DNA of 64,000 bases from Candidatus Binataceae bacterium (GCA_035650475.1 DASRHP010000009.1:174545-238544), one strand, 5' to 3'; counted from the stretch's first letter, positions 19,147-60,918 are shown. Notes: generated by a model not told the origin, from the letters alone. Numbers and translations: made by a program.

Positions 19147-19237
19147 CGTGGCGTCCAAGAGGCGGAGCGGGTCGGCCGATTCAAATTTGACCGTCTACAA
19201 AGGCGTCTGATAGCATCCGGCGCGCGGAGAATTGCCG

Positions 19238-30124: not shown

Positions 30125-30169
30125 GAAGCTTCTTCGATTGGTGTCCTTTTTGGGGCGGTGAGGCCGGCT

Positions 30170-30610: not shown

Positions 30611-30727
30611 CGGTCGCGCAAGCAGTATCGCGGGGCTCGACCACCGGCCGCCGGCGGCGGGCATCGCGTTGCATCCGGCTCGCCCGAGCCGGCCTTCGAT
30701 GCAATAATCAGCGGTGCTGATCAGGCC

Positions 30728-31189: not shown

Positions 31190-31220
31190 GGCGGAGGTTG
31201 CCGGAGCGCCGCAGACTCCG

Positions 31221-34194: not shown

Positions 34195-36048
34195 CTAGTT
34201 CGGCGACGTTATCCAGTCGTGCTTGCGCCAATGGGTCAGCAACGTGTTGAGATAGCTCTGCGCCGCCGCATCCATCCAGCCTCCGGAAAAATGCGAACTC
34301 AGGCAGCCGAACAGCATCCAGTCCTGATTCGTCGCAGGTTTAGCGGTGATTGGATTAAGAAAGTTGTGCGGCGATACCCCACCGGGATTCGACAGATAGG
34401 CCGAAACGTCGGCGCTGTAGGTATTGGGCAAATGATCAGCGCTGGCGAAATAAGGCGCTTGGTCGCCGTTCATGCAAGCGCGCTGGCTGGCGAAACGAAA
34501 CTCGGCCGAGAAAGTGGTCGAGTATTCCATCATCGGCCACGTCATCGTTGCGTAGAAAACCTTGGTCTGAAAATCCCCCCACGACTGGTAGCAGCAGTTC
34601 TCGCAGATGTAACCGAAGAGATTAACATCACGGTTGCGGCACTCGGACAAAGTTGTGCGCCGATCGCCGCCCGAATGCCACTGGACCCAGGAGCCGTTTT
34701 CGCTCGTCGCCTGCGCGCGCACAGCGTCCTCGTCGATTCCGTACTTGCAGGCTGCGAGGCGAAAGATGTTCCAGGTCGATCCGGTGTACTGCCCGGTGAT
34801 TTTGCGGAACCAGAAATCGTTGTTCCAACTCGAGTTTAGATCGAAAGTGTCGATGCCATTAATCAGCCGCTCCAGGTCCGCCGGCCGCGCCCGCGTCTGG
34901 TTGACCGGCGAAGTAATGCCGATATTTAGATCGTCCACGTGGGTGGCCTGGTTCGCGGGAATCGTTTCGTCGGCGTCGCTGAGCATTGCCGCGCATTCGG
35001 CGTCCGTGGGCACGCTCGTACTTCCGTCGGCGAAGCGTCCCGTGCCAGGCTCGGTGCCGAAATGCAGGCTCGGCGTCGGTGCCGGACTGGGGTTTTCGAA
35101 CACGTAGCTGGTGCTGGTAGTGGCGAGAATCACCTCGTTGGGTTGGGCGGAATGGGCTTCGATTTTCACGGTGTGGCGGCCGTTTGGATAATCATCGGTC
35201 GATAGCAATTCCTGGCCGACGCCGAATTCAATCATCGGGCCGCCATCAACGAACATCGCTTCGTGGTTTACGCCGGCACAGGTATCCGAGGTGTGGATCG
35301 CAACGTCGCCGCTGAGCGTGCTGCCGGACGTGGGCGAGATAATGACCAGGCAGATTGGATTTGGCGTCGGCATGGCACTGGGCGTAGGTGTCGGACCATT
35401 CTGGACGTTCAATGTTTCGCTGGCGCTGCCCAACACGCGTGAACCGGGATTGCTAGATTGGCTCGTTACCGTGATCTGGTGGTTGCCATTGACCCATTCA
35501 ACGGTCTGCCAGGTAACCGCGCCGGGAGCGAAGGCGCCAACGAACGTGTTGTCGACGAACAGCGTCTCGAACCACAGGCCCGTGCACGTATCCAACGTTG
35601 ATATCGGGACTATGCCGCCGACTGCCTGTCCCGGCTGGGGCGCCGTTATCCTGATACAGGGCGTGGGCGTAGGCGTCGGGGTTGGCGTGGGAACAGGAGT
35701 TGGCTTGGGAGTCGGCGTCGCGGGTGCGATCAGGTACGCTTTGACCGACGCAGAGCCGAGCAGTCGTCCGCCGCTTCGGAACGACTTGACCGTGAGCGTG
35801 TACGTACCGAGCGCGAAATTGGAGGTCGGCCAGATGAACTGCTGCGGATTCGGTGTCGCGCATCCCAGTCCGGTCTGATTAACGTATGCGCACTCGTACC
35901 AGCGGTTCGTGCAACGATCGGAAAACACGATCGGAACCGACGGTCCTTTAAGAATCAGCGCGCCGTTGGTCGGAGAGGTGATGCGAATACACTGGCCGTG
36001 AGCTGGCGCAGTGCACGTGATCACCATCGCCACGATCGCGATGGCCTG
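34195..36048 (-). CDS. secreted multi-domain protein: three bacterial Ig-like repeats separated by Pro-Thr linkers, then an unrecognised Cys-rich C-terminal domain (~310 aa)
   Basis: Repeats start CIRITSP / CIRITAP / ICLVIISP; linkers PTPTPTPTPTP; GC (~55%) is lower than the flanks; candidate signal peptide KHSALLFSALQRISQAIAIVAMVITCTAPAHG but no in-frame canonical start next to the GGAGGA RBS, so the 5' end is uncertain. Confidence 0.6.
   Translation of the reverse strand, partial: QAIAIVAMVITCTAPAHGQCIRITSPTNGALILKGPSVPIVFSDRCTNRWYECAYVNQTGLGCATPNPQQFIWPTSNFALGTYTLTVKSFRSGGRLLGSASVKAYLIAPATPTPKPTPVPTPTPTPTPTPCIRITAPQPGQAVGGIVPISTLDTCTGLWFETLFVDNTFVGAFAPGAVTWQTVEWVNGNHQITVTSQSSNPGSRVLGSASETLNVQNGPTPTPSAMPTPNPICLVIISPTSGSTLSGDVAIHTSDTCAGVNHEAMFVDGGPMIEFGVGQELLSTDDYPNGRHTVKIEAHSAQPNEVILATTSTSYVFENPSPAPTPSLHFGTEPGTGRFADGSTSVPTDAECAAMLSDADETIPANQATHVDDLNIGITSPVNQTRARPADLERLINGIDTFDLNSSWNNDFWFRKITGQYTGSTWNIFRLAACKYGIDEDAVRAQATSENGSWVQWHSGGDRRTTLSECRNRDVNLFGYICENCCYQSWGDFQTKVFYATMTWPMMEYSTTFSAEFRFASQRACMNGDQAPYFASADHLPNTYSADVSAYLSNPGGVSPHNFLNPITAKPATNQDWMLFGCLSSHFSGGWMDAAAQSYLNTLLTHWRKHDWITSPN
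35661..35728 (-). repeat. tandem Pro-Thr codon repeat (linker PATPTPKPTPVPTPTPTPTPTP)
   Basis: Minus-strand translation of the (ACG CCx) repeats; a second shorter PT linker lies at ~35371..35404. Confidence 0.6.
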
Positions 36049-36527
36049 CGAAATACGCTGCAGGGCAGAGAAGAGGAGAGCCGAATGCTTTGATCCTCCG
36101 TGCCCAAAGCCTACGCGCCGAGCGGCGCCGACAGCGCCAGGGCGAAAGTCACCATAATTCGACTGCGCGGATCGCCAGACAGGACGGGATGGGCCGGCCG
36201 ACCGTATTTCGAATGGGAACACCTGCTGTCGCCCGCGAATATTGAGCACTTCCGGTGCCATCGATACCCTCAGCGAAAGCCTTGGAGCAATGCGGGCAAT
36301 AAAACTAGTTCCTTCCTTGTGGTGTGCGGAAATTGAGACGCCTCTTTGACGAACAGTTACGTGCGGATTGAAACAGTCTGTCGTTCGGCGATTCAGACGT
36401 GAACTGTCGCGGGTGCCCTTGCGGCTCCGACAACAAGGTTGTGGTTCTGACCTATGCACGGCATGGGCAATACGACACTGGGCACGCTGCGATAGACAAC
36501 TGGTGGCGGGCTGGCTAGATATAGCCC

Positions 36528-37409
36528 ATGCCACTGGACTCATCGCTGGTTGGAACCACGGTTGGACCGGTTGAGGCCGAAGTCGACGCGCGCTGGGCGA
36601 TGGCCTACGCGGCGGGAATCGAAGACTACCTGCCGTGCTACCTCGACACGCGCCGCCCGCACGGGATCGTCACCCATCCCGTCTTTCCGGTCTGTTTCGA
36701 ATGGCCGGCGACGTATGCGCTGAGCGCCAGGCTGCGCCAATCCAGCCTGGCGCCGGCCGAGGCGGCGCGCGGCGTGCATGCGACTTACGACCTGACGCTC
36801 CATCGCCCGATTCGCCCGCCCGAGCGCTTGACCACTATGCTCACGCTGGCGGGTGTGCAGCGCCTGCGGCCGGGTGCGTACCAGCTAATGCGTTTCGAAA
36901 CAGTGGACGCCGGGGGCAGGCCGGTATGCACGACTTGGTACGGCAGCATCTATCGTGGCGTCGAGGTGGCGGGTCCGGACCGCCCTGCCGTTGACACCCC
37001 CGCTCTCCCTCCTGCCGGCCTTGCGGGCGACACGCCCCGTGCGGAGATTCCGCTTGCGATTTCGCCCGGCGCCGCTCACGTCTATACCGAGTGCGCGCGC
37101 ATCTGGAACCCGGTTCATACCGACGCAGCGGTTGCTGCGGCCGCCGGGTTGCCGGCGATCATCCTGCATGGCACGGCCACGATGGCGATGGCGGTGTCCA
37201 AGATCGTCACCGCCGAGGCCGCCTGCAATCCCGAGCGCGTGCGACGCGTGCGCGGGCGCTTCGCCGCGATGGTCCTGATGCCGTCGCTATTGACGGTGCG
37301 GATCAACTCGCGCATCGCGTTTGCAGGCGGCGAGTCGATCACCTTCGAAGTGTTCAACGCCGACGGCAGCCGTGCGATCCGCGACGGCTTCGTGGTCCTC
37401 GGCGATTGA
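36528..37409 (+). CDS. MaoC-like double-hotdog dehydratase/hydratase (paralog B)
   Basis: ~55-60% identical to paralog A over its full length (MAYAAGxxDxxPCYLDT…IRDGFVVL). Confidence 0.7.
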   Translation: MPLDSSLVGTTVGPVEAEVDARWAMAYAAGIEDYLPCYLDTRRPHGIVTHPVFPVCFEWPATYALSARLRQSSLAPAEAARGVHATYDLTLHRPIRPPERLTTMLTLAGVQRLRPGAYQLMRFETVDAGGRPVCTTWYGSIYRGVEVAGPDRPAVDTPALPPAGLAGDTPRAEIPLAISPGAAHVYTECARIWNPVHTDAAVAAAAGLPAIILHGTATMAMAVSKIVTAEAACNPERVRRVRGRFAAMVLMPSLLTVRINSRIAFAGGESITFEVFNADGSRAIRDGFVVLGD

Positions 37410-45621: not shown

Positions 45622-47289
45622 CTACAGCACGTTGACTGGCCGGTATTCGCCGAACACCCGCCGCATCGCGTCCGAGATCTCGCCCAGGGTCGCCCGCTTG
45701 CGCACCGCGTCGATAATCGGCGGCATCAGGTTGCTGCCGTCGCGCGCCGCCCTCTCGACCTTCCCGAGCGCCGCGCGTGCGGCTTCCGCGTCGCGCTCGG
45801 CACGCAGGCGAGCCAGGCGTTCGCGCTGACGCTCCTCGAGCTGCGGGTTGAGGCGGAGAATATCGGTCGGAGGTTCTTCCTCGGCGGTGAATTGGTTGAC
45901 GCCGACGATGATGCGCTGTTTGGTTTCGATTTCGCGCTGGTAGGCGTAGGCCGCCGACTGGATCTCGCGCTGCATGTAGCCGCGCTCGATCGCAGCCACC
46001 GCGCCGCCGAGGTCGTCGATACGGCCCAGGTATTCCGTAGCCTTGGTCTCGAGCTCGCGCGTGAGGGTCTCGAGGAAGTAGGAGCCGCCCAGCGGATCGA
46101 CCGTATCGGCGACGTCGGACTCGTGCGCGATGATCTGCTGGGTGCGCAGCGCGAGCAGGGCCGAGTTCTCAGTCGGCAATGCCAGCGCCTCGTCGCGCGA
46201 GTTGGTGTGGAGCGACTGCGCGCCGCCGAGGACCGCGGCCAGCGCCTGGAGCGTAACCCGCACCACGTTGTTGTCCACCTGCTGCGCCGTCAGCGTCGAG
46301 CCCGCGGTCTGCGCATGGAAGCGCATCATCATCGAGCGCTCGTCGGTGGCGCCGAAGCGCTCTTTCATGATCCGCGCCCACAGCCGGCGCGCTGCGCGGA
46401 ACTTGGCGATCTCCTCGAAGAAGCCGTTGTGGACGTTGAAGAAGAACGACAGCCGGCTGGCGAAGGCGTCCACCTTGAGCCCCGCCTTGATCGCCGCTTC
46501 GACGTAGGCGATGCCGTCGGCGAGGGTGAAGGCGAGCTCCTGGGCGGCGGTCGAGCCGGCCTCGCGGATGTGGTAGCCGGAGATCGAGATCGTGTTCCAG
46601 TTGGGGACTTCGCTGGTCGCGAACTCGAAGATGTCGGTGATAATCCGCATCGAGTCGCGCGGCGGATAGATGTAGGTCCCGCGCGCGACGTACTCCTTGA
46701 GCACGTCGTTCTGGATCGTGCCGTTGAGCTTGTCCCATCCCACCCCGCGCCGCTCGGCCACCGCCAGGTAGAGCGCAAGCAGGATCGCGGCGGTGGCGTT
46801 GATCGTCATCGAGGTCGAGATCTTTTCCAGCGGTAAGGCCTCGAGCAGGGTCTCCATGTCGTCGATCGAGCAGATCGACACGCCCACCCGCCCGACCTCG
46901 CCGCGGGCCAGCGGATGATCCGGGTCGCGGCCCATTTGGGTCGGCAGGTCGAAGGCGACCGACAGCCCGGTCTGCCCATGTTCGAAGAGATAGCGATAGC
47001 GGCGGTTGGACTCCTCCGCGGTGCCGAAGCCCGCGTACTGGCGCATCGTCCACAGCCGCCCGCGGTACATCGTCGGCTGCACGCCGCGGGTGAACGGATA
47101 CTCGCCGGCGAAGCCGAGGTCGCGCAGGTAGTCAAAATCGTCAAGATCGGTGGGGTCGTACTGGCGCTTGATCTCGATGCCCGAGGTGGTGGCGAACTTC
47201 GCGCGCCGCTCGCCGCCGCGCTTGAGCGCGGGCGCGACCTTGCGCTGCTCCCAGGCTTTGCGTGCGTCCTCGATTCCGCCGTTCGACAT
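45622..47289 (-). CDS. methylmalonyl-CoA mutase, large (catalytic) subunit without a fused B12-binding domain
   Basis: 555 aa; MCM N-terminal TIM-barrel signature (…[13 protein letters not shown]…). Confidence 0.9.
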
Positions 47290-47314
47290 AAGCGCCTTGG
47301 CCTCCGATCCGGCG

Positions 47315-47824
47315 CTACTCGATAATCGCCAGGATCTCGCCCTTCTCGACCGTCTGGCCCGCGGTCACCCGCACCTCTACCACCCGTCCGGCCTTGGGCG
47401 TCTTGATCTCGTTCTCCATCTTCATCGCTTCAACGGTCAAGACGCCCTCACCGACTTCGACCTGCTGGTCGGGTTTGACCAGCACGTTGACCACCCGCCC
47501 GGGCATCATCGCCTTGAGTTCGACACGGCCGCTGACCTGGCGGCCGAGACGCGCCTCCACCTGGCGTATCGCGCGCTGGCGCTCGTCAACCAGGGCGACG
47601 CGCCATGCGCCGGCGCGCGAGGCGACGATGAGCTCCTCGCCGTCAGGCGTGACGTCGAAATCGAAGGAGCGGTGGCCAATGAGGACTGAAAACGAACTTG
47701 CGCCGACGCGGCGCAGATCGACCTCGAAGCGCCGCTCGCCCATCCGGACCGCATAGGAATGGGCGCCGAGCTCTTCGAACTCGAAATCGTGCTCCGCACC
47801 CTGCATCGTCGCCAGGTATCGCAT
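47315..47824 (-). CDS. biotin carboxyl carrier protein (biotin/lipoyl attachment domain)
   Basis: EAMKMENEI biotinylation motif; 169 aa from ATG 47824. Confidence 0.8.
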
Positions 47825-47844
47825 GGCTGCCGTCGTCCCTTTCA

Positions 47845-49371
<1,527 letters not shown>

Positions 49372-49505
49372 CGTCTATAGAAACGAGGCGCGCCGCTCCG
49401 AGGCGGAGGGGCCGCTCGTGCTCCAGTCTATCGCGTTCGCGCCGGTGCGGGCGAGGCGGTGCGGCGCCGCACGCATGCCGCCGCGGCTCGAGGTCGCGCC
49501 GCCGC

Positions 49506-51056
<1,551 letters not shown>

Positions 51057-51271
51057 CGTCAGAATTCCGCGCAAGCGAGCATGATACGGGTTGCCGCCCG
51101 CGCCGTGCAAGCGCCGCCCGCCGGCTGTGGGCGTTCGGTTTGCGCCGCTTGCCAGGCGGCAGAAGTGCGCCGCGGCGCCTTGAAATCTTTCCGCCCGAGG
51201 CTGCGGCGTACGATAATAACCCGCCCTGAGGGCTGCCGGTTAAGGAGTGCCCTGACGTGATCGACAACAGG

Positions 51272-51619: not shown

Positions 51620-52129
51620 TCAGTCGGCGGCGCGCGGCTCGAAGCCGACGAAGCGCATCCGGTCGCCCACCTGTACGCGGTGGCGCGCGCAGAAGCCGCC
51701 GTTAACCTCCAGCACGTACTGCGCGTCGGCGTCGGGGCCGACCGATTGCTTGGAGTAGGGTTCGGCGTTGGCGACGATCCCGACGATCTTCCCCGCAGGG
51801 TCGGCGAAGATCATGTCGAGCGGAATCTCGGTGTTCTTCATCCAAAAGCGCAAGCGGCCGGCGGTGGGAAAGACGAACAGCATCCCGGCATCCTCGTCCA
51901 TGTGATTGCGGTACATCAGTCCCAGCTCGCGTTTGGCAGGAGTCAGCGCCAGCTCGACCCGCAACGCCGCGCGCCGGGCGCCGTCGGGAGCGTCGATCAC
52001 CGTTTGGGGATCGCGTGCGCATCCGGCTATCACGGCGGCCATCACGAGCGCAGCGAGCGCGCGCACGACCGGCGCGCGCGGAAGGGCAGTGCGCGCGTCT
52101 TCGGCCATCGGCGGGGCGGCGTCAGCCAA
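51620..52129 (-). CDS. DUF192-domain protein (lipoprotein-like N-terminus)
   Basis: LFVFPTAGRLRFWMKNTEIPLDMIFAD DUF192 core; IAGC lipobox. Confidence 0.7.
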   Translation of the reverse strand: MADAAPPMAEDARTALPRAPVVRALAALVMAAVIAGCARDPQTVIDAPDGARRAALRVELALTPAKRELGLMYRNHMDEDAGMLFVFPTAGRLRFWMKNTEIPLDMIFADPAGKIVGIVANAEPYSKQSVGPDADAQYVLEVNGGFCARHRVQVGDRMRFVGFEPRAAD

Positions 52130-53327
52130 CTTCGAGCGGCAGCGAGGTCAAGCCGCGCAGGAAGAACGATCCCTTGTATCGAAGCGGCGCCTCCGGCGTC
52201 GCGGGCCGGATGCGCTTGAAGCGCTCGAGCAGCGAGCTGATCGCGATCGCGCCTTCCATCCGCGCCAGCGGCGCGCCGAGGCAGAAATGGATGCCTTCGC
52301 CGAAGGCGAGATGGTCGTTGGGCGAGCGTGCGATGTCAAAACGTTCAGGCTCGGGGAACTGCGCGGGGTCGCGGTTGGCCGCCGCCACCAGCACGAAAAT
52401 CATCGTTCCCGCTGGAATCGTCATGCCCGCGAACTCGGTGTCCTGGCGGATGTGCCGCACGGTCGATTGGACCGGGCCGTCGTAGCGCAGCATCTCCTCG
52501 ACCGCCGACGCCGCCAGCCCGGGTTCGCGGCGCAGGCGTTCGAGCTCGCCCGGATGGCGCGTCAGGGCGAGCATCCCGTTGCCGATCAGATTGGTCGTGG
52601 TTTCATTGCCGGCGAGCAGCAGGATGACCACGAAGGCGATCAGTTCCTCTTCGCTCAGGGTTTCCTCGGAGTCCTCGTGCGCGGCGACCAGCACGCTGAC
52701 GAGGTCGTCGCCCGGGCTGCGCCTGCGCTTTTCGATCTCGGCGACGAAGTAGGCGCGCAGTGCGGCGAAGGCCTCGCGCACCTCCTGCGGCAGCGGCATC
52801 CCGGGTGGCGTGTTGTCGGACTCGATGACCGTGTCCGACCATCGCTTGAACATCGGGTAATGCTCGGGCGGCACCCCCAGCATGTGTGCGATCACCATCA
52901 CCGGCAGCGGATTGGCGAGGTCGGCCATCACGTCGAGTCCGCCGCGCGCGGCGGCGCGGTTGAGCAGCGAGTTGGTGAATTCGCGGATTTTCGGTTCCAG
53001 CTCGCGGATGCGCCGCGGGGTGAAGGCGCGGCTCACCAGGCGGCGCAGGCGGGTGTGGATCGGGGGGTCGGAAAAGACCACGCGCGGCGCGTTGCCGAAG
53101 ACGCTGATCCGCTCTTCGATCAGCGGACTGCGCGGCGGCACGCTGGAGAAATGCTCATGGTCGCGCAGGATCGCGCTGCAATCGGCGTAGCGCGCGACCA
53201 ACGCCATCGGCACGAACACGTTAAGCAGCCGCGGCGGCCCCTGAAACAGCGGTCGGTAGTACGGGTATGGATTGGCGCGGAACGCTTCGTCCCACGGGTT
53301 GAAGTAGATTTCGCCGGCTTCGCTCAT
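52122..53327 (-). CDS. cytochrome P450
   Basis: FGEGIHFCLGAPLAR heme-thiolate loop; EELIAFVVILLLAGNETT I-helix; ATG at MSEAGEIYFNPWDE. Confidence 0.88.
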   Translation of the reverse strand: MSEAGEIYFNPWDEAFRANPYPYYRPLFQGPPRLLNVFVPMALVARYADCSAILRDHEHFSSVPPRSPLIEERISVFGNAPRVVFSDPPIHTRLRRLVSRAFTPRRIRELEPKIREFTNSLLNRAAARGGLDVMADLANPLPVMVIAHMLGVPPEHYPMFKRWSDTVIESDNTPPGMPLPQEVREAFAALRAYFVAEIEKRRRSPGDDLVSVLVAAHEDSEETLSEEELIAFVVILLLAGNETTTNLIGNGMLALTRHPGELERLRREPGLAASAVEEMLRYDGPVQSTVRHIRQDTEFAGMTIPAGTMIFVLVAAANRDPAQFPEPERFDIARSPNDHLAFGEGIHFCLGAPLARMEGAIAISSLLERFKRIRPATPEAPLRYKGSFFLRGLTSLPLEVG

Positions 53328-53450
53328 CGCAGGGCCACCGCCTCCGCGTGTCCAGAAGGGACGTGCCCGTATGTTAGCCCGCCCGGCGGCGGCAAATACA
53401 GCGGGGAGCGCGGCGAGCCGGACCCGCTCCATGTCGCGGACGATCCGCCG

Positions 53451-54269
53451 TCAGCGGCCCATGAAACGGGGTCGGCGCTTTTCGAGGAACGCGCGCACGC
53501 CCTCGCGGTAGTCCTCGCTATCGTAGCAGCGCGAGACCAGCTCGGCGACAAGCCCGAGGTCGCGCTCGGCGGCGTCCTTGAGTCCCTCGCGGACAGCGGC
53601 CTTCGCCGCCGCCATCGTGAGCGGCGCATTGGACGCCATCCGGGTCGCGTACTCGCGCACGTAGGGCTCCAGCTCTTCCGGCCCGACAACCTTGTTGACC
53701 AAGCCCATCGCGTACGCCTCGTCGGCGTCGAAAATCCGCGCCGACATCAGGATGTCGCGCGCGTTGGCTGGCCCACAGACCTGCGCGAGCGCCATCACGC
53801 CGTCCAGCGGATAGGCAAGACCGAGCCGCGCGGCCGGGATTCCCATCTTCGTGCCGCGCGCGGCGATCCGGATGTCGCACGAGAGTGCAACCTGGACGCC
53901 GCCGCCGATGCAGATGCCGGCGATCATCGCGATTACCGGCTTGGGGCAGTTGAGCAGCGCGTTGGTGGCATTACCTGGAGCGTCGCGATAGATGCGCGCC
54001 TGCTCGGCGTTGGCGCGCAGGCTCGGAAACTCCGAGATGTCGGCGCCGGAGATGAAGGCCTCGGGGGTCGCCCCGCGCATCACGATCACGCGCACGTCAG
54101 GATCGTCCCGGAGCTCCGCCACGCCCTTGACGATGAGCTGCCAGGTGCGCAGGTTGAGCGCGTTGCGCACCTGCGGGCGGTTGATGATGAGCCAGCCGAG
54201 CGGCGCCTCGCGACGCACCAGCAGCGGCTCGGCCTCCTGTGCGTTGACGTTCACATCCTGTGTGGCCAT
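53451..54269 (-). CDS. enoyl-CoA hydratase/isomerase (crotonase) family
   Basis: 272 aa from ATG 54269; crotonase oxyanion-hole region (…FISGADISEF…GICIGGG…); the upstream part of the listed 538-aa ORF is antisense to the next gene. Confidence 0.85.
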   Translation of the reverse strand: MATQDVNVNAQEAEPLLVRREAPLGWLIINRPQVRNALNLRTWQLIVKGVAELRDDPDVRVIVMRGATPEAFISGADISEFPSLRANAEQARIYRDAPGNATNALLNCPKPVIAMIAGICIGGGVQVALSCDIRIAARGTKMGIPAARLGLAYPLDGVMALAQVCGPANARDILMSARIFDADEAYAMGLVNKVVGPEELEPYVREYATRMASNAPLTMAAAKAAVREGLKDAAERDLGLVAELVSRCYDSEDYREGVRAFLEKRRPRFMGR

Positions 54270-54307
54270 CGCTTCGACGCTCCTGGCTTTCGGTTTGCGC
54301 CTCGCGT

Positions 54308-55171
54308 TCACAACCTGGCGAGCACTTCGTTGGCGAGCTTGTCGAGCCCGCGCGTCAGGCCCTCGGCATCGAAGGCCGGCGGCGCGATTACGAGGCGCGA
54401 CACGCCGATATCCTGGAGCTGCCTGACCGTATCGAGGTTGGCGCGGCCGCCGCTGGAAAGCTCGATCGTCGCGGGGTCGCGGCCAGCCTGCTGCGCCTCC
54501 ACGCGCATGATCGCGAATAGCTCCTTGAGCTTTTCGATGTCGCCGATCGCGGGGAAGAAACCGTCGCCGAGGCGGCCGGCGCGGCGCGCGGCGGCCGGCG
54601 AGTGGCCGCCGATATGGATCGGTACGCCGCCCGATTGCGCCGGCTTCGGAAAGCTCTTCACTTCGCGGAAAGCGAAGTGTTTGCCGTGGAAGGTCGAAGT
54701 GGCGTCGCGCCACAACGTGCGCAGCGCCGCGATCGCCTCGTCGGTGCGCCTGCCGCGCTGACGGAAATCCAGGCCCAGCGCGTCGAACTCCTCCTTGAGC
54801 CAGCCGCTGCCGATGCCCAGGATCACGCGCCCGCGCGAGAGCACGTCGAGCGTGGCGACCTCCTTGGCGGTGTAGAGCGGATGGCGCTGGGGCAGGATCA
54901 GGATGCCGGTGGCGAGGCGGATGCGGCTGGTGACCGCGGCGGCGTAGGCGAGCGGAAGCAGCGGGTCGGGGATCGCAACGTCCTCGCCGCCGGGAATCTT
55001 GCCGTCGCGCGAGTACGGATAGGGGGTTTGGTAGTTGTGCGGGATGACGACGTGCTCGACCGTCCACAGCGACTCGAAGCCACGCTCCTCAGCGCTTGTG
55101 GCCAAATGGGCCAGCAGCTCGGGATTGGCGAACGGCCCCGCATTGGCGAACATCAGCCCCAGCTTCATCAT
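54308..55171 (-). CDS. LLM-class F420/flavin-dependent oxidoreductase
   Basis: Luciferase-like signature (LWTVEHVVIP…GIGSGW). Confidence 0.8.
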   Translation of the reverse strand: MMKLGLMFANAGPFANPELLAHLATSAEERGFESLWTVEHVVIPHNYQTPYPYSRDGKIPGGEDVAIPDPLLPLAYAAAVTSRIRLATGILILPQRHPLYTAKEVATLDVLSRGRVILGIGSGWLKEEFDALGLDFRQRGRRTDEAIAALRTLWRDATSTFHGKHFAFREVKSFPKPAQSGGVPIHIGGHSPAAARRAGRLGDGFFPAIGDIEKLKELFAIMRVEAQQAGRDPATIELSSGGRANLDTVRQLQDIGVSRLVIAPPAFDAEGLTRGLDKLANEVLARL

Positions 55172-55342
55172 CGGCTAGCTCCACGCCTCGCGTTGGTTTA
55201 CTGAATCCGCGGGCTTGAAGACTTGTAGCCCAGCTCGCGCGCCGAGGTAAACCGCGCGCGGCGTCGGTGCGAGGCGCCGGAGGTGCGGACGGTCGGGTTG
55301 CGAGCTTGTCCGCAGCGCGCGACAAGGTTAAGTAGAGGAGTC

Positions 55343-56218
55343 ATGGATATCGGCAAATACGGAGTGTGGTTCTTTTACGACGGGATGAGCGCGGAGCAGA
55401 GCGTGGCGTTCGCCCAGAAGGTCGAAAAGGCTGGCTACGGCGCGCTCTGGATCCCTGAGGCGGTCGGGCGCGAGCCCTTCGCGCACGCGGCCTATCTTGC
55501 CGCGCACACCGAGCGGCTGGTCTTCGCCACCGGGATCGCCAACATCTACGCGCGCGACGCGGTGACGATGGCGGCGGCGTCCAAGACCGTGGCTGAACTT
55601 TCGGGCGGCCGTTTCCTGCTCGGCATCGGTGTCAGCCACAAGCCGCTGGTGAGCAATTTGCGCGGCCACAGCTACGACAAGCCATACAGCTACATGCGCG
55701 AGTACCTGCCGCGGATGAAGAGTGCGCTATACCGCGCGCCCGAACCCAAGGAGCGCGTGCCGGTCGTGCTCGCCGCGCTGCATCCCAAGATGCTCGCGCT
55801 ATGCGCCGCCGAGGCCGACGGCACCCATACCTACTTTGTGCCGCCCGAGCATACCCAGAAGGCGCGCGCCGCGATTGGGCCCAAGCCGATGATTTGCGTC
55901 GAGCAGGCAGTGGTCCTTTCCACCGACGCGGCCAAGGCGCGCGCCACCGCCCGCGAGTACATGAAGACCTACGTGCCGCGGCTGCCCAACTACACCAAGA
56001 ACCTCAAGAACCTGGGCTTCGCTGACAAGGAATTCGAGAACGGATGCAGCGACCGGCTGGTCGATGCGATCGTCGCCTGGGGCACCGAGACTCAGATCCG
56101 CGACCGCGTCGAGGCCCATCTCAAGGCCGGCGCAACTCACGTCTGTATCCAGCCGCTGAGCACCGAGAGCGCCACGATGCCCGACGAGCGTGCGATGCAG
56201 GCGCTGGCGCCGCGGTAG
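55343..56218 (+). CDS. LLM-class F420-dependent oxidoreductase
   Basis: AGAGGAG RBS; LWIPEAVGREPF…GIGVSH signature. Confidence 0.8.
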   Translation: MDIGKYGVWFFYDGMSAEQSVAFAQKVEKAGYGALWIPEAVGREPFAHAAYLAAHTERLVFATGIANIYARDAVTMAAASKTVAELSGGRFLLGIGVSHKPLVSNLRGHSYDKPYSYMREYLPRMKSALYRAPEPKERVPVVLAALHPKMLALCAAEADGTHTYFVPPEHTQKARAAIGPKPMICVEQAVVLSTDAAKARATAREYMKTYVPRLPNYTKNLKNLGFADKEFENGCSDRLVDAIVAWGTETQIRDRVEAHLKAGATHVCIQPLSTESATMPDERAMQALAPR

Positions 56219-56224
56219 TGCGCG

Positions 56225-56530
56225 ATGCGGCCGGGCTGGGCCGCCGTGGCCTTCGCCGCGCTGGCGCTGGGCGCGCCGCTGGTGCTCGGATGCGGGCCGT
56301 CGGCCGAGGACAGCGCGGTCCAGGCCGAGGCGGCGGCCGCCCAGGCCCGGGCCGCGGCGGCCAATGCGCAGGCCGCCGCGCTCAAGGCGCGAGCGCAGGC
56401 GCTTGACGCCCAGCGGCGCGCCGACCATGCGGCGGAATTGTTCAGGGCCGCGGCGGCCGAGTTCGACGACGCGGCGCGAAAACTCGCCCAGCACCAGCGC
56501 GAGTTGCAGCAGAACGACGAGCAAAAGTAA
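56225..56530 (+). CDS. hypothetical Ala-rich coiled-coil lipoprotein
   Basis: LGC lipobox after the signal peptide; low-complexity A/Q-rich body; weak support. Confidence 0.4.
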   Translation: MRPGWAAVAFAALALGAPLVLGCGPSAEDSAVQAEAAAAQARAAAANAQAAALKARAQALDAQRRADHAAELFRAAAAEFDDAARKLAQHQRELQQNDEQK

Positions 56531-56593
56531 CGAGCAGAACCCCGCGGCGCGCGGCGCCGACATTTGGCCAACCGGGAAAGGACGGGCGTAGCG

Positions 56594-57238
56594 ATGAAGC
56601 TCTACAACATGAACCTCTCCAACTTTGCCACCAAGTCGCGCATCGCGATCTACGACAAGGGGCTCAACATCGAGATCGCGCCGGTCCCCGGCGGCAATCT
56701 GAAATCGCCCGAGTACCTCAAGATCAATCCGCTCGGCAAAATCCCCGCGCTCGACGCCGACGGCATGATCATCGCCGAGTCCGAGGTCATCAACGAGTAC
56801 CTCGAAGACAAATTTCCCAGCCCTCCGCTGCTGCCCAAGTCGCCCGAAGGACGTGCACGGGTGCGCGAGTTCACCCGCTTCCATGACCTTTACCTCGAGC
56901 CGCCGCTGCGCGCGCTGTTCGGCCAGCTCAATCCCAAAAGTCGCGACGAGAAGGTGGTCAACGAGCGGCTGACCGAGTTCAACCAGCGCCTCGACCAGCT
57001 CGAAGCGATGCTTGCGCCGAGCGGCTTCGCCAGCGGCCCCGACTTCACGCTGGCCGACTGCGCGCTGGCGCCGACGATGTTCTTCGCGACCAACATGCTG
57101 CCCGGCTTCGGCGCCAAACCGCCGCTGGAAGGGCGGCCCAGGCTCGCCGCCTGGTGGGCGCACGTGCAGACGCGCCCGTCGGTCAAGAAGGCGCTGGACG
57201 AGATGGCCGAGGCGCTCGCCGCGATGATGAAGCGCTAG
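56594..57238 (+). CDS. glutathione S-transferase
   Basis: N-terminal thioredoxin-like GST domain (MKLYNMNLSNFATKSRIAIY…KIPALD…ESEVINEYL). Confidence 0.8.
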   Translation: MKLYNMNLSNFATKSRIAIYDKGLNIEIAPVPGGNLKSPEYLKINPLGKIPALDADGMIIAESEVINEYLEDKFPSPPLLPKSPEGRARVREFTRFHDLYLEPPLRALFGQLNPKSRDEKVVNERLTEFNQRLDQLEAMLAPSGFASGPDFTLADCALAPTMFFATNMLPGFGAKPPLEGRPRLAAWWAHVQTRPSVKKALDEMAEALAAMMKR

Positions 57239-57266
57239 GCGAGGCGCGCAAGCGGGGTCGAAACAC

Positions 57267-58337
57267 CTAGCGCGCCGGCGCGGCGGCGCGCGCCTTGGGC
57301 TGCTCCGCCGCGCGTGCCTTGCGCCGAAAGTGTGGGATCACTTCCCTGGCGAACAGGCGCATGCTCGCGCGCACCTTTTTCGGATCCAGCCCCGGCAGCG
57401 ACATCCCGAGCGCAAGATGGGTATGCCCGGTGTAGCGCTCGAGCATCTCGATCGCGTCGTCGGGGCTCCCGATGATCAGCGGCTCGCCCAGAAAACGCGT
57501 GTCGTTGAGCTTGCGCAACTCGCCCACCGGCGGGACCTGCGCGAACCGCTCGTCGCCCGGGACGTCGGCCGCCTCCGCGATCCACTGCCCGTACTTTGCC
57601 ATCAGGTGATGGATCGCGTACTCGGCGTCGTCCCACGCGCGGTCACGGCGCGGCGCGATATAGCCGAAGCGCAGCTGGGCGATGTTGAAATGGTCGGGGT
57701 CGCGGCCGGCGGCGCGCAGCGCCTCCTTGTAAATCTCGGCCTGGCGCGGACCGGTGCCCGCCAGATGGTAGCCGTTGCGCGCGGCGCGCTCGGTCGCGCT
57801 GCGGCTGCGCGCGCCGATCCAGATCGGAATATGCGGCTGTTGCGCGGCTTTGGGATACAGCGTCGCGTTGCGCACGGTGTAGTGTTTGCCCTCGAACGTC
57901 ACGTTGTCCTCGGTGAACAGGCGCCGGATTATCGCGACCCCCTCGCGCAGGCGCGCGGCGCGCTCGTTGCGCGGGACGTTGAAGCCGTCGAATTCCTGCG
58001 GCCGGTAACCTTGGCCCAGCCCGAGGTCCAAGCGCCCGCCCGACAGCACATCGACGGTCGCCGCCGATTCGGCCACGTGCAGCGGGTGGTGCAGCGGCAT
58101 CAGCAAGACGAAGGTCCCGATGCGGATTTTCCTCGTGCGTGTGGCGATCGCCGCCGCCAGTGGAAGCATCGCCGGCGAGTAACCGTCCTCGACGAAGTGA
58201 TGCTCGGTCAGCCAGATGGTGTCGTAGCCCATCTCCTCGGCCTCGACCGCGAGGTCCACGTGGCGGCGATAAAGCTCCGAGTAGGAGAGTTCATTGCGGT
58301 CGGAATTGCGGAAGGATTCGAGCAGCCCGAAGTTCAT
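57267..58337 (-). CDS. LLM-class flavin/F420-dependent oxidoreductase
   Basis: IWLTEHHF…LGLGQGY signature. Confidence 0.8.
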   Translation of the reverse strand: MNFGLLESFRNSDRNELSYSELYRRHVDLAVEAEEMGYDTIWLTEHHFVEDGYSPAMLPLAAAIATRTRKIRIGTFVLLMPLHHPLHVAESAATVDVLSGGRLDLGLGQGYRPQEFDGFNVPRNERAARLREGVAIIRRLFTEDNVTFEGKHYTVRNATLYPKAAQQPHIPIWIGARSRSATERAARNGYHLAGTGPRQAEIYKEALRAAGRDPDHFNIAQLRFGYIAPRRDRAWDDAEYAIHHLMAKYGQWIAEAADVPGDERFAQVPPVGELRKLNDTRFLGEPLIIGSPDDAIEMLERYTGHTHLALGMSLPGLDPKKVRASMRLFAREVIPHFRRKARAAEQPKARAAAPAR

Positions 58338-58468
58338 CTCGCTCCTCCTTGGCGATGCGGCCGGGGCGCGCCGATTTCATCGGCACAATACCGCGAAGGC
58401 GCAACTATGCGTCAACAGCTTGCGCATTGCGGAGTCGCCGCCATCCGCGCGATAAATAAACAGCCGCC

Positions 58469-59500
58469 GTGAAGCTCTCGGTAATCGATCAGTCGCCGGT
58501 CTCCGCCGGATTCACTCCGGCCGCCGCGCTGCGCAACTCGATCGAACTCGCCCGTCTGGCCGACCGCCTCGGCTACGAGCGCTACTGGATCGCCGAGCAT
58601 CACGCGATCGAGGCGCTCGCGAGCCCGGCGCCGGAAATCCTCATCACGCGCGTTGCCGCCGAAACCTCGGGCATCCGGGTCGGCTCGGGTGGCGTGATGC
58701 TGCCCCATTACAGCCCGCTGAAGGTGGCCGAGGTCTTCCGGATGCTGCATGCGATGTATCCGGGGCGGATCGATCTCGGGCTGGGGCGCGCCCCGGGCGG
58801 CACAGCGCTCGATTCCTACGCGCTCCAGCGCGACCGCAGCCAGCAGCGCACGGTGGACGACTTTCCCCAGCAGCTCGTCGAGCTGCTGGCCTTCCTGGGC
58901 CGCGATTTCCCGCCGCGCCATCCGTTCAGCCGCATCCACGTCTCGCCCGACATGCCCGGCGCGCCCGAGGTCTGGCTGCTCGGCTCGAGCCCGTGGAGCG
59001 CCTCGGCGGCGGCGCAGCTCGGATTGCCGTACGCCTTCGCGCACTTCATCGATCCCCATCCGACACGCACCGCGCTCGAGCATTACTTCGCCCGCTTCAC
59101 GCCGTCAAAGTATCTGCCGGTGCCGCGCGCGATCCTTGCGCTGGGCGTGGTCTGCGCCGAGACGCGGGCCGAGGCCGAGCGGCTGCTGATGAGCGCGCGC
59201 CTGTTCCGCCGCCGTATCCGCCAGGGCGATGTCCGTCCGATTCCGACCCCGGAGGAGGCAATCGCGGAGTTGGGCGCGGAGCCGCGGCCGGCGGCGAGCG
59301 AGTCCGGCGAATGGCCGCGTTACGTAGTCGGCGCGCCCGAGGCGGTGCGCGACCAGTTGATAGACATGGCGAGCGTGCTGCGCGTGGAGGAGCTGATGGT
59401 GGTGACGGTCGTGCACGACCATCGTGCCCGCATGCGCTCCTATGAGCTGCTCGCTGAGGCCTTCAGCCTCCCGCCGCGTCCGCCGCGCGTCCAACGATGA
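58469..59500 (+). CDS. LLM-class flavin-dependent oxidoreductase (MsnO8/YhbW-like)
   Basis: MKLSVIDQSPV…YWIAEHH…GLGRAPG signature; GTG start. Confidence 0.8.
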   Translation: MKLSVIDQSPVSAGFTPAAALRNSIELARLADRLGYERYWIAEHHAIEALASPAPEILITRVAAETSGIRVGSGGVMLPHYSPLKVAEVFRMLHAMYPGRIDLGLGRAPGGTALDSYALQRDRSQQRTVDDFPQQLVELLAFLGRDFPPRHPFSRIHVSPDMPGAPEVWLLGSSPWSASAAAQLGLPYAFAHFIDPHPTRTALEHYFARFTPSKYLPVPRAILALGVVCAETRAEAERLLMSARLFRRRIRQGDVRPIPTPEEAIAELGAEPRPAASESGEWPRYVVGAPEAVRDQLIDMASVLRVEELMVVTVVHDHRARMRSYELLAEAFSLPPRPPRVQR

Positions 59501-59621
59501 CTGCTGCGCAAATTAAAATTCCCGTTCCTCTTTTCCCCCGGGGAAGGCGTCAGGCCGCGGTGCGGCTTTCGCCGCCACCACCAGGCACGTCTCTGAAACT
59601 CCCAGCGCAGGAGGCCACCCC

Positions 59622-60380
59622 ATGAGCACGTCCGCCAAAGTCGCGATCGTAACCGGCGCCGGCACCGGGATCGGTAAGGCCAGCGCGCTCGCCCTGATGC
59701 GCGAAGGATACGCGGTCGCGCTGGCCGGGCGCCGCAAGGAGCCGCTCGAGGCGACCGCCGAGCAGGCGAAGGCGATCGGGGCCTCCGCGCTGGTCGTTCC
59801 CGCCGACGTAAGCGATGCCGCCTCGGTCAAGGCGCTCTTCGCGGGCACGGTCGAGGCTTTTGGGCGCGTTGACCTGTTGTTCAACAACGCCGGCATCGGC
59901 GCGCCCGCGATTCCGCTCGAAGATCTGACCGTGGAGCAATGGAAAAAGGTCGTCGATATAAACCTGACCGGCGCGTTCCTGTGCACGCAGGAGGCGTTCC
60001 GCGTGATGAAAGGCCAGAATCCGCGTGGCGGACGGATCATCAACAACGGCTCGATCTCCGCTCACGCGCCGCGTCCGAACTCCGCCCCCTACACCGCGAC
60101 CAAGCATGCGATGACGGGGCTGACCAAATCGACCTCGCTCGATGGGCGCAAGTACAACATCGCCTGCGGCCAGATCGATATCGGCAACGCAGCGACCGAG
60201 ATGACGGCGCGGATGGCGCGCGGCGTGCCGCAGGCCAACGGCGCGATCGCGGCCGAGCCGACCTTCGCCGTCGAGCACGTCGCGCGCGCGGTGGTCTATA
60301 TGGCGAGCCTGCCGCTGGAGGCCAACGTGCAGTTCATCACTGTGATGGCGACCGCGATGCCCTTCATCGGCCGCGGCTGA
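59622..60380 (+). CDS. SDR-family oxidoreductase
   Basis: [14 protein letters not shown] Rossmann motif; NNAG; YxxxK (YTATK); GGAGG RBS. Confidence 0.88.
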
Positions 60381-60918
60381 GGTTTGCGTCGACGACCGCC
60401 TGACTTCCGTCCCCTTCCCTGAAGGAGGGTGCCGCGCGAGGGGTCAAGGCGTCTTCCGCGTAGGGGCGGTTCGCGAACGGTCCCTACGCAGAGATCACAG
60501 CGCTTGTGCGCGGCCCAATGCGCGAGGTGCGCTGGGCAGTCGCCGCACTTGCACCCTCCTCCGCTCGTGACGCGGGCAAGGGGTCAGAGCGGAGGCAACA
60601 CTCCTCAATAATTCGGGGGGCCGGGCGTTTGCCCGACCCCCCTACCGCCTCCACATCCGCAACCCCACACCACGCCTGAGCGGGGCCGCTCACCTCATCG
60701 CCATCCGCACCTCGTCACGCTCGCCCGCTAAACCAGACCCCGGAGGAGTCCACCGCCTCTCTCGCCGCCGCCAAGCGCCTCTCCCGGACGCGCCCGCCGA
60801 TCGCGCCGCTCCGCTAAGCGCGCCCAATCGCCTGTCCTGCCGTTCCCCCTCCTGCCAAGCTTTTCCGCCGCCAGCCCCCGCGCCCTTCACTCCCCCGGGG
60901 TCTTCCGACCTGCTCGGT

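Follow-up and report, generated by a model that had tools for sequence, protein, structure and literature searches.

A block of luciferase-like oxidoreductase genes with P450, crotonase-fold and GST genes in a Candidatus Binataceae bacterium: gene content, conservation and possible function

A stretch of 64,000 nucleotides (hereafter, the window) from an uncultured soil bacterium of the Candidatus Binataceae (Binatota), and thus not of actinobacterial origin, carries at 52122-60380 four genes for luciferase-like (LLM) oxidoreductases alongside genes for a P450, a crotonase-fold protein, a small lipoprotein-like protein, a glutathione S-transferase (GST) and an SDR. This raises the question of whether all of these genes serve one pathway, or whether only a part of the block belongs together.

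Organisation of the block

Genes of the block were called by third-position GC frame analysis in combination with Pfam and NCBIfam searches (Table 1), which bear out the positions that a sequence-only reading of this DNA had given for four LLM genes, and the P450, GST and SDR genes that it had placed in the block. That reading had counted five LLMs in the block and a sixth at 14913; tblastn with all LLMs as queries finds exactly four in the block and five in the whole window, so that the gene at 14913 does encode an LLM, albeit the fifth and not the sixth, while no LLM fragments or pseudogenes were found by tblastn across the whole window. The lipoprotein that it had proposed is plausible from the lipobox and Ala-rich tail of the 101-aa protein, which has no Pfam or NCBIfam match. 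NCBIfam matches of the GST all lie under their cut-offs and provide no equivalog assignment. The likely true start of the P450 gives a protein of 401 aa, as on the ENA contig.

Table 1. Features of the block, its transcription units and related genes elsewhere in the window
Feature	Position	Strand	Evidence and remarks
DUF192 protein	51620-52129	minus	PF02643, 115.7 bits; lipoprotein signal IAGC; last gene of P450 unit
Cytochrome P450, CYP107/CYP109-like	52122-53432	minus	PF00067, 137.6 bits
Crotonase-fold protein	53451-54305	minus	PF00378, 182.8 bits; likely start 54269 (272 aa)
LLM1, TIGR03619 (Rv2161c-family), predicted F420-type	54308-55171	minus	274.3 bits vs cut-off 166.9
Divergent intergenic region LLM1/LLM2	55172-55342		171 nt; presumed bidirectional promoter region
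LLM2, TIGR03620 (MSMEG_4141-family), predicted F420-type	55343-56218	plus	293.2 bits vs cut-off 219.8; alternative upstream start 55283
Putative lipoprotein, 101 aa	56225-56530	plus	Lipobox LVLGC; Ala-rich coiled tail
Glutathione S-transferase	56564-57238	plus	GST_N and GST_C (Pfam); likely start 56594 (214 aa)
LLM3, monocistronic	57267-58337	minus	TIGR03619 borderline, 171.2 bits vs cut-off 166.9
LLM4, MsnO8-family	58469-59500	plus	TIGR03558, 399.4 bits vs cut-off 167
Classical SDR, 3' of LLM4	59622-60380	plus	PF00106, 181.1 bits, and motifs
Unit 1, LLM1-crotonase-P450-DUF192	55171-51620	minus
Unit 2, LLM2-small protein-GST	55343-57238	plus
Unit 3, LLM3, monocistronic	58337-57267	minus
Unit 4, LLM4-SDR	58469-60380	plus
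LLM5, TIGR03619-type	14913-15818	minus	PF00296; TIGR03619, 245.8 bits vs cut-off 166.9
Flavin reductase 1	18631-19146	plus	PF01613, 97.6 bits; no NCBIfam match
Flavin reductase 2	19232-19714	plus	PF01613, 156.8 bits; HsaB/HpaC-like, under cut-offs

Coordinates and spacers divide the block into four transcription units of alternating orientation. LLM1 is the first gene of the minus-strand unit, the region separating it from LLM2 contains no match to the sigma-70 consensus, and LLM3 is convergent with the GST gene at 28 nt from stop codon to stop codon. Thus, the block does not have the form of a single operon or co-transcribed catabolic cluster, in the sense of co-directional genes with short spacers and a dedicated regulator, and neither a regulator nor a transporter gene is present in this window's version of it. 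The block is bordered by acyl-CoA carboxylase and methylmalonyl-CoA-mutase genes and by a class II ribonucleotide reductase gene, and acyl-CoA enzymes are abundant in the wider window. The gene set of the window is of Gram-negative type.

The two flavin reductases that had been read near 18631 and 19238 are present as a tandem pair; their suggested role as partners of the LLMs finds no backing in the layout, as some 39 kb, with rpoN/lpt and further housekeeping operons in between, separates them from LLM4, and cell-envelope genes (glycosyltransferase, TPR and PBP5) follow them.

Conservation in related lineages and expectation by chance

LLM2 was used as the conserved anchor for neighbourhood comparison among 21 non-redundant related lineages, in which it is 75-93% identical and which all belong to one family. 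The closest loci come from Binataceae/Binatia MAGs; LLM2 itself has 7925 homologues at E<=1e-30, the top matches being named Candidatus Binataceae and those listed being at least 78% identical. In the close clade, the DUF192, P450 and crotonase genes were each present in 11/11 relatives, with DUF192 co-located with the P450 in all 11, and the GST was kept in all 12 close relatives and in 10 of 24 distant ones. An orthologue of the 101-aa protein was found in 12 of 14 close and none of 30 more distant relatives, while LLM1 is facultative (5/13 close, 9/22 more distant). LLM4 and the SDR accompany the block in close relatives (9/9 and 8/8, respectively) and in none of 15 distant ones, and LLM3 occupies this position in none of the ten assessable close relatives, occurring elsewhere with LLM4 in lineage L008 and after the GST in L006.

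The arrangement that recurs is P450-crotonase-(LLM1), divergent from LLM2-small protein-GST. The crotonase gene stands beside LLM1 or LLM2 in 13 of the 21 lineages and the divergent LLM1/LLM2 pair is seen in ten, while in four LLM2 has no other cluster gene alongside, or only the GST or LLM3. Variant modules on contigs of 4.34 Mb and 232 kb add TetR, MFS, two P450s, DUF4019 and an alpha/beta-hydrolase, so that the core in sister lineages is accompanied by TetR, MFS and alpha/beta-hydrolase genes and by one more P450. The four-LLM set is thus a lineage-specific variant, and the block is real but fairly ordinary.

These data bear on the proposal of an oxidative pathway, of which one part stands, namely the recurrence of the P450, crotonase, LLM1, LLM2 and GST genes; this, sometimes with TetR, MFS and hydrolase genes, is in keeping with an accessory module that oxidises or breaks down a hydrophobic substrate. 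The part that gives way is the inclusion of all LLMs in one pathway, whereby the four LLMs, P450, crotonase, GST and SDR would act serially on one xenobiotic, lipid or terpenoid with reduced flavin supplied by the reductases at 18.6-19.7 kb. Such a pathway would account for nine contiguous genes with short spacers, for the same full arrangement on three independent metagenome contigs and for the partial conservation of the block, and LLM4, perhaps also LLM3, would require a reductase. However, the LLMs belong to different subfamilies, the units alternate in orientation, the rest of the block persists where LLM3 (10/10 close relatives) or LLM1 (8/13) is missing, the LLM4-SDR pair is confined to close relatives, and the reductases are remote and would be of no use to F420-type LLMs, making a single dedicated pathway quite improbable.

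The number of LLM genes was also weighed against their background frequency, which in a small and biased sample was 2/69 Binatia ORFs (each 5 kb or more away from the anchors) and, in the window, one of about 48 genes outside the cluster, or roughly 2.6% overall (about 2-3%). At 2.6%, a 5000-gene genome is expected to contain about 0.26 runs of at least four LLMs in nine genes, about 6.6 of at least three in nine and about 85 of at least two in eight. Four LLMs together are thus mildly above chance, while the two-LLM state is not; of the six closest lineages, four show this state and the remaining two have LLM1 in addition. With LLMs at such a frequency, multi-LLM neighbourhoods are not very surprising.

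It is conceivable that the LLMs and the other enzymes are functionally unrelated members of hugely expanded families that have merely gathered in a variable region, and synteny within one family could reflect shared, recent descent without selection. The expected frequency of three-LLM runs, the highly variable gene content of the locus and the lack of a regulator gene in the window agree with this, as does the occurrence of LLM2 alone among unrelated housekeeping genes in some lineages (in L104 it follows argH-lysA-dapF-dapA), which indicates that LLM2 can work outside the module. Nevertheless, the P450-crotonase-(LLM1) and LLM2-GST arrangement survives changing flanks and inserts (MFS, TetR, hydrolase, VapBC, DUF4019) and occurs in differing flanking contexts at LLM2 identities as low as about 76%, and TetR and MFS genes are typical companions of functional catabolic modules; we hold coincidence to be unlikely. 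What the sequence-only reading had named as evidence against its own pathway proposal (unrelated LLM subfamilies with scattered orthologues and no conserved neighbourhood) was half borne out: the LLMs do come from unrelated subfamilies, with a scattered distribution of LLM3 and LLM4, but LLM2 keeps a conserved neighbourhood.

Predicted biochemistry of the encoded proteins

The P450 has an intact heme-thiolate loop (FGEGIHFCLG), I-helix (AGNETT) and EMLR motif, as in class I bacterial P450s, and its best PDB matches are 4rm4, Vdh (3a4g), YjiB (7y97) and CYP267B1 (E about 1e-80); no ferredoxin or ferredoxin reductase gene adjoins it (Pfam, 51.6-60.4 kb). The crotonase-fold protein belongs to the NCBIfam family PRK06127 (313.8 bits, cut-off 291) and shares its fold with canonical crotonase (5z7r, EchA8). 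It had been read as an enoyl-CoA hydratase; the fold is confirmed, but GGGVQ and GIPAA stand where 5z7r has GGGCE and GQPE, such that both catalytic glutamates are replaced, by Gln and Ala, as they are in all 11 orthologues checked. Identity as EC 4.2.1.17 was accordingly rejected. The closest structures, 4k2n and 4olq, bear generic family names and also miss one or both glutamates. The segments FISGADISEF and GICIGGG align with those that we take to form the oxyanion hole of crotonases.

The four LLMs (287-356 aa) share pairwise identities of 35% or less and fall into at least three subfamilies; by these comparisons they appear to be old paralogues. LLM1, LLM2 and LLM5 score over the curated cut-offs of TIGR03619 or TIGR03620, with LLM3 borderline; LLM5 is 39% identical to LLM1 and belongs not to the cluster but to a MaoC/SnoaL/Fe-ADH group elsewhere in the window. 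Among solved structures, LLM1 and LLM2 come closest to F420 enzymes, i.e. the F420-dependent hydroxymycolic acid dehydrogenase 9fp4 for LLM1 and, as the only PDB matches, F420-dependent Mer enzymes for LLM2. We know of no member of TIGR03619 or TIGR03620 with a known substrate. Use of F420 by LLM1 and LLM2, as predicted from HMM subfamily membership, would make them hydride transferases and not oxygenases (PMC6279831, PMC8498797), and such enzymes would not need a flavin reductase.

It is possible, if doubtful, that Binataceae use F420 and that P450-(glutamate-less crotonase)-TIGR03619 LLM, divergent from TIGR03620 LLM-lipoprotein-GST, represents an undescribed F420-linked breakdown pathway for a hydrophobic, CoA-activated soil compound. 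No F420 biosynthesis genes (cofC/fbiD, cofD/fbiA, cofE/fbiB, fbiC, cofG/H) lie within the 64-kb window, Binatota is absent from the phyla reported in the literature to encode F420 biosynthesis, and no F420 report for Binatota was found. The module so delineated occurs with or without TetR, MFS and alpha/beta-hydrolase genes. If it exists, the pathway would be ecologically widespread, given the great abundance of LLM2 orthologues in metagenomes from soil (the above-mentioned 7925 proteins).

LLM3 and LLM4 resemble characterised two-component FMNH2 oxygenases, a comparison that does not apply to LLM1 and LLM2. LLM4 aligns with MsnO8 (4us5) from end to end (residues 1-337; 7e-112, 376.9 bits) and is probably an FMNH2-dependent monooxygenase component. 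The nearest structures of LLM3 are FMN-type, namely RslO1 (7bip; 8e-38, 133.8 bits) and luciferase alpha, leaving its predicted cofactor ambiguous in view of its TIGR03619 score. A partner flavin reductase gene was found neither at 51.6-60.4 kb nor in the Pfam-annotated parts of related loci, which is compatible with an FMNH2 mechanism since reductases can be encoded elsewhere.

As MsnO8 and RslO1, the characterised proteins most similar to LLM4 and LLM3, act in tailoring within type II polyketide clusters of Streptomyces, and P450s and SDRs are common in that role, the block might be the tailoring part of a secondary-metabolite gene cluster, as had also been proposed. The Pfam-scanned ORFs across the 64 kb, including those at 51.6-60.4 kb, contain no PKS, NRPS, terpene synthase, RiPP or other core gene, nor do those parts of the flanks of related loci that were annotated with Pfam, and the direct flanks are the acyl-CoA and ribonucleotide reductase genes described above, rendering this origin extremely improbable.

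Proposed function and comparison with known systems

We consider it probable, with some reserve, that the block is a plastic accessory module for catabolism or detoxification of a hydrophobic, partly CoA-linked substrate, bearing add-on LLMs and containing no single pathway that needs all four. The locus would be chromosomal, accessory and vertically inherited, with variable gene content, and its recurrent core would consist of the divergent units (LLM1)-crotonase-P450-DUF192 and LLM2-small lipoprotein-GST. As to cofactors, reaction order and substrate class, we infer that the P450 would put oxygen into the substrate and that the GST (with the hydrolase where present) would open or conjugate the activated product, while LLM1 and LLM2 would catalyse alcohol/ketone or C=C redox steps by F420-type hydride transfer, and the glutamate-less crotonase may perform non-hydratase chemistry on a CoA thioester. 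The LLM4-SDR pair, a probable FMNH2-dependent monooxygenase of MsnO8 type with a dehydrogenase, would be an addition in the closest clade only, and the solitary LLM3, absent from its position in the closest relatives, a further one. The density of LLMs would thereby be made up of the two LLMs of the conserved core, of genes added in particular lineages and of LLM paralogues that have multiplied across the phylum.

Among known systems, the long-chain alkane monooxygenase LadA shares the LLM superfamily with these proteins, and 'multiple ladA homologues' have been reported from the same phylum (Murphy et al. 2021, PMC8262859), so that many LLMs are to be expected in Binatota genomes. Orthology to LadA (about 440 aa) was considered and rejected, as all four LLMs are shorter and no LadA chain is among their PDB matches at E<=1e-5. 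LadA is presumably placed in the NtaA/DmoA family TIGR03860; LLM1 scores 55.6 against its cut-off of 279.7, and the family is absent from the best 25 families for LLM3 and from those listed for LLM2 and LLM4.

TIGR03558 is a very broad family of which, to our knowledge, MsnO8 is the only characterised member. LLM4 matches MsnO8, and LLM3 best matches RslO1, of the Streptomyces bottropensis two-component FMN-dependent epoxidases MsnO8/MsnO3 and RslO1/RslO2. In those systems MsnO8 is partnered by the flavin reductase MsnO3 (PMC8093152), whereas the window has no adjoining reductase and no polyketide cluster, the context being catabolic or housekeeping. LLM1, LLM2 and LLM5 group by their subfamily scores with actinobacterial F420 LLMs (Fgd, Adf, Mer, hydroxymycolic acid dehydrogenase), although the host here is a Gram-negative candidate phylum outside those reported to synthesise F420.

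A further parallel is the expansion of LLM paralogues with P450s and CoA-transferases in SAR202 Chloroflexi (Landry et al. 2017, PMC5395668), a different phylum from the soil Binatota, which are represented here by a local neighbourhood. The SAR202 expansion includes a type II Baeyer-Villiger LLM group, whereas two or three LLMs of the window fall into F420-type subfamilies. In common with the block, SAR202 genomes combine many old FMN/F420 LLM paralogues with P450s, family III CoA-transferases, SDRs and acyl-CoA enzymes, and their LLMs have been interpreted as oxidising recalcitrant aliphatic and alicyclic compounds (PMC5395668); furthermore, homologues of LLM3 with 30-38% identity occur in SAR202/Dehalococcoidia MAGs.

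Gene content and layout of the block

As the window has a GC content of approximately 67%, coding frames were selected by third-position GC and subsequently annotated with Pfam and NCBIfam. All gene coordinates proposed in the sequence-only reading coincide with true ORF boundaries, and its observation of a dense oxidoreductase cluster was largely correct; however, while it placed five luciferase-like oxidoreductases (LLMs) in the block, tblastn with every LLM as query located only four there (LLM1–LLM4) and five in the entire window, and detected no fragments. A further LLM gene or pseudogene within the block was thereby ruled out. Public data call LLM2 in its 291-aa form rather than as a 311-aa start variant.

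Features of the block and of the remainder of the window
Feature	Coordinates	Strand	Basis
LLM5 group	13850-17485	-
LLM5	14913-15818	-
Flavin reductases (PF01613)	18631; 19232
rpoN-hpf-ptsN-rapZ operon	28559-32141	+
782-aa ORF	34195-36543	-
Carboxylase/mutase genes	45622-51110	-
DUF192 lipoprotein	51620-52129	-	third-position GC frame, Pfam/NCBIfam
Cytochrome P450	52122-53432	-	third-position GC frame, Pfam/NCBIfam
Crotonase-fold protein (ECH)	53451-54305	-	third-position GC frame, Pfam/NCBIfam
LLM1	54308-55171	-	third-position GC frame, Pfam/NCBIfam
LLM2	55343-56218	+	third-position GC frame, Pfam/NCBIfam
101-aa putative lipoprotein (hyp101)	56225-56530	+
GST	56564-57238	+	third-position GC frame, Pfam/NCBIfam
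LLM3	57267-58337	-	third-position GC frame, Pfam/NCBIfam
LLM4	58469-59500	+	third-position GC frame, Pfam/NCBIfam
SDR	59622-60380	+	third-position GC frame, Pfam/NCBIfam
Spacer	60381-60918

Coordinates and spacers resolve the block into four units of alternating orientation: LLM1-crotonase-P450-DUF192 (minus strand, gaps of roughly 15-125 nt), LLM2-lipoprotein-GST (plus strand, spaced by 6 and about 60 nt), a solitary LLM3 (minus strand, converging on GST, the stop codons being 28 nt apart) and LLM4-SDR (plus strand, 121-nt gap). Scans conducted to delimit operons revealed no sigma-70 promoters or intrinsic terminators beyond shuffled expectation, and Rfam and tRNA scans of the whole window returned zero matches. 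The block lacks any regulator, transporter, reductase or core biosynthetic gene. On one side it is bordered by acyl-CoA carboxylase subunits and a methylmalonyl-CoA-mutase-like gene, and on the opposite side by a class II ribonucleotide reductase. The latter is convergent with the SDR gene across a 538-nt C-rich spacer, in which public contigs call no gene and Rfam finds no match, and which includes a GC-rich stretch resembling a hairpin (GGGGGGCCGGGC...GCCCGACCCCCC). The carboxylase is split (carboxyltransferase (CT), biotin carboxylase and separate BCCP) and lies beside a methylmalonyl-CoA-mutase catalytic subunit of 555 aa, for which the mutase domain is the sole Pfam match; these genes, directly upstream of the cluster, are kept in close and several distant relatives (CT in 9/9 and 4/13 loci, respectively).

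Acyl-CoA enzymes abound in the window (two family III CoA-transferases, three MaoC dehydratases, an acyl-CoA dehydrogenase and the carboxylase/mutase genes). Between two of the MaoC-dehydratase genes sits a 782-aa ORF of lower GC content (0.60 versus about 0.67) with a weak bacterial Ig (Big_7) match; it may encode a surface protein that is foreign or evolves fast. The genes grouped with LLM5 (TIGR03619) encode a SnoaL-like protein, an Fe-alcohol dehydrogenase and a MaoC dehydratase. In several related loci (L006:14448-15709, L132:7693-8959 and L115:7846-9879), too, a SnoaL-like protein accompanies a TIGR03619 LLM, suggesting a small unit that recurs.

Predicted chemistry of the encoded enzymes

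Judged by sequence identity, the cluster LLMs are not a homogeneous set: LLM1 and LLM3, the best in-cluster pair, share 35% identity and the remaining pairs, aligned in short partial stretches, at most 34%. The identity of LLM1 to LLM5 is 39%; this and the best in-cluster value rule out a recent tandem LLM duplication in this window; relatives do display tandem LLM1 duplicates.

Subfamily assignment and predicted cofactor of the cluster LLMs
Protein	Subfamily (score vs cut-off)	Nearest structures	Predicted cofactor
LLM1	TIGR03619 (274 bits vs 167)	F420-dependent hydroxymycolate dehydrogenase (9fp4)	likely F420
LLM2	TIGR03620 (293 vs 220)	F420-dependent Mer enzymes only, among solved structures	likely F420
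LLM3	TIGR03619 (171 vs 167, borderline)	RslO1 (7bip), luciferase alpha	ambiguous, FMN-leaning
LLM4	TIGR03558, MsnO8 family (399 vs 167)	MsnO8 (4us5), 7e-112, full length	likely FMN

As no published sequence fingerprints that split F420 from FMN LLMs were found in PMC6279831, the cofactor calls are based on HMM subfamilies and nearest structures. MsnO8 and RslO1 depend on FMN and rely on separate flavin reductases for their supply (PMC8093152); F420-type LLMs are hydride-transfer dehydrogenases/reductases that neither activate O2 nor use a flavin reductase (PMC6279831, PMC8498797). "Multiple ladA homologues" have been reported in Binatota genomes (PMC8262859), for which the accessible part of the supplement text of Murphy et al. 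(PMC8262859) lists no LLM copy numbers. A LadA identity for the cluster LLMs was rejected, as 0/4 resemble LadA in NCBIfam and PDB matches. No literature report of F420 in Binatota or Binataceae was found, nothing in the window bears on it, and the phyla listed as carrying F420 biosynthesis genes in the review of Grinter and Greening do not include Binatota.

The heme-thiolate, I-helix and ExxR motifs of the P450 are all intact, and the protein is nearest to broad-substrate CYP109/CYP107/CYP267-type hydroxylases, with no redox partner gene adjoining it. The crotonase-fold protein scores above the NCBIfam PRK06127 cut-off and displays GGGVQ and GIPAA versus GGGCE and GQPE in the canonical hydratase 5z7r. 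The earlier label "enoyl-CoA hydratase" is thus unsafe, as the fold is that of a crotonase but both catalytic glutamates are replaced, by Gln and Ala; this replacement, shared by 11/11 Binataceae orthologues examined, marks a conserved crotonase subfamily with predicted non-hydratase chemistry. Its closest PDB entries, 4k2n and 4olq, carry generic family names only and lack one or both glutamates. GST and SDR are each generic members of their families.

Conservation of the neighbourhood

A genome collection was scanned with LLM3 as anchor and metagenomes with LLM2, after which the cluster proteins were mapped by tblastn. The comparison covers Binataceae relatives, the best LLM2 homologues (best 120 of 7925 public metagenome proteins at E<=1e-30) all being at least 78% identical.

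Presence of cluster genes in related loci, by LLM2 identity (denominators are loci whose contig extends far enough to judge the gene)
Gene	LLM2 >=84%	LLM2 75-83%
CT	9/9	4/13
DUF192	11/11	4/15
P450	11/11	5/15
ECH	11/11	8/20
LLM1	5/13	9/22
hyp101	12/14	0/30
GST	12/12	10/24
LLM3	0/10	4/19
LLM4	9/9	0/15
SDR	8/8	0/15

When loci were collapsed to 21 non-redundant lineages, each represented by 8 kb or more, the full core was confined to the six closest, among which LLM1 occurs in two and LLM3 in none. CT-DUF192-P450-ECH-LLM2...GST was observed in three of the 21, P450-ECH-LLM1-LLM2 in two, four LLMs of other make-up (two LLM1, LLM2 and LLM3) in two, and LLM1 (one or two copies)-LLM2 without P450 or ECH in four. 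In a further 4/21, LLM2 has no other cluster gene alongside, or GST or LLM3 only; in one of these it follows argH-lysA-dapF-dapA. The divergent LLM1-LLM2 pair is present in 10/21. Variant arrangements include, by Pfam, MFS-P450-P450-TetR-ECH-DUF4019-LLM1 divergent from LLM2-small ORF-alpha/beta-hydrolase-GST on a 4.34-Mb Binataceae contig (ENA ERZ25039533 contig_15114), and, on a 232-kb contig (L165), a VapBC toxin-antitoxin pair between the divergent LLMs with recR-ybaB-dnaX in place of GST; SnoaL-like and chalcone-isomerase-like proteins are further variable neighbours. The richer module spans L163:1907-13224 and L165:1705-12538 in sister lineages. From the patterns across the 21 lineages and variant contigs, the most persistent links are those of crotonase with LLM1 or LLM2 and with P450, of LLM1 with divergent LLM2, and of LLM2 with a GST downstream of it, while LLM3 and LLM4-SDR are peripheral.

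LLMs represent 2/69 sampled Binatia ORFs at least 5 kb from anchors and 1/~48 window genes outside the cluster, a frequency of roughly 2.6% from a small and biased sample. At this frequency, a 5000-gene genome is expected to contain at least four LLMs in nine genes about 0.26 times, at least three in nine about 6.6 times and at least two in eight about 85 times. Having four LLMs is mildly unusual, unlike the two-LLM state found in most close relatives; TIGR03619-type LLMs are found again and again across Binatia loci.

LLM3 shares 87% identity with a protein of a MAG bearing the label "Deltaproteobacteria bacterium" and 70-75% with those of four more MAGs, of which three are labelled Candidatus Binataceae; MAGs matching LLM3 also match GST (81%), LLM2 (77%), LLM1 (72%), ECH (70%) and P450 (63-72%). 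LLM2 orthologues carry the NCBI name "Candidatus Binataceae", a family of the candidate phylum Binatota, and the identical cluster is present on a 764-kb ENA contig (ERZ27279688 k141_2873558) and two JGI contigs. The rest of the window holds a Gram-negative gene set (lptC, lptA, rpoN-hpf-ptsN-rapZ, kdsB and lspA), in which the classical rpoN operon is preceded by lptC and lptA, with kdsB/pyrG farther upstream, in a Proteobacteria-like arrangement. An actinobacterial origin, to which the high GC content and the F420-type LLMs had pointed, was rejected on the strength of these nearest genomes and this gene set. Given the 7925 LLM2 orthologues, and recovered LLM2 contigs that are mostly JGI (Ga...) metagenome records, among them the Ga0335xxx and Ga0307xxx sample series, this lineage, and with it the locus, appears to be frequent in the environment.

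Interpretation and significance

The best-supported reading is that of a modular accessory locus. Its conserved core, in which two predicted F420-type LLMs lie beside P450-crotonase and GST and to which sister lineages add TetR, MFS and a hydrolase, has the appearance of a small catabolic/detoxification module acting on a hydrophobic substrate, handled as a CoA thioester at some stage, while LLM4-SDR and LLM3 are lineage-specific additions. We infer that P450 oxygenation would come first, followed by opening by the GST or hydrolase, F420-linked redox and, finally, CoA-level processing. The sequence-only reading had suggested an oxidative pathway or tailoring cluster partnered by the two flavin reductases; the catabolic-type core supports this in part, but tailoring has no core enzyme to back it and the flavin reductases, although genuine, are not placed so as to support the proposed link to the LLMs.

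Binatota is an abundant uncultured soil phylum, already proposed as an alkane degrader. If the core is a working module, it would offer a first way into the function of two large LLM families that are still orphans, TIGR03619 and TIGR03620, and of a crotonase subfamily that lacks the usual catalytic residues, and would extend F420-dependent metabolism to Binatota; should F420 biosynthesis be confirmed, F420-linked catabolism would reach another abundant soil phylum, an incremental rather than categorical novelty. For now, the finding chiefly shows that where LLM genes are densely packed in genomes of this kind, the cause is the expansion of paralogues and the gain and loss of modules; such neighbourhoods should therefore not, without further evidence, be read as single pathways or tied to distant flavin reductases. 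The locus is a new example of already known kinds of genes and not a new category, its closest published analogue in concept being the expansion of LLM paralogues in SAR202, together with P450s and CaiB/BaiF transferases (PMC5395668).
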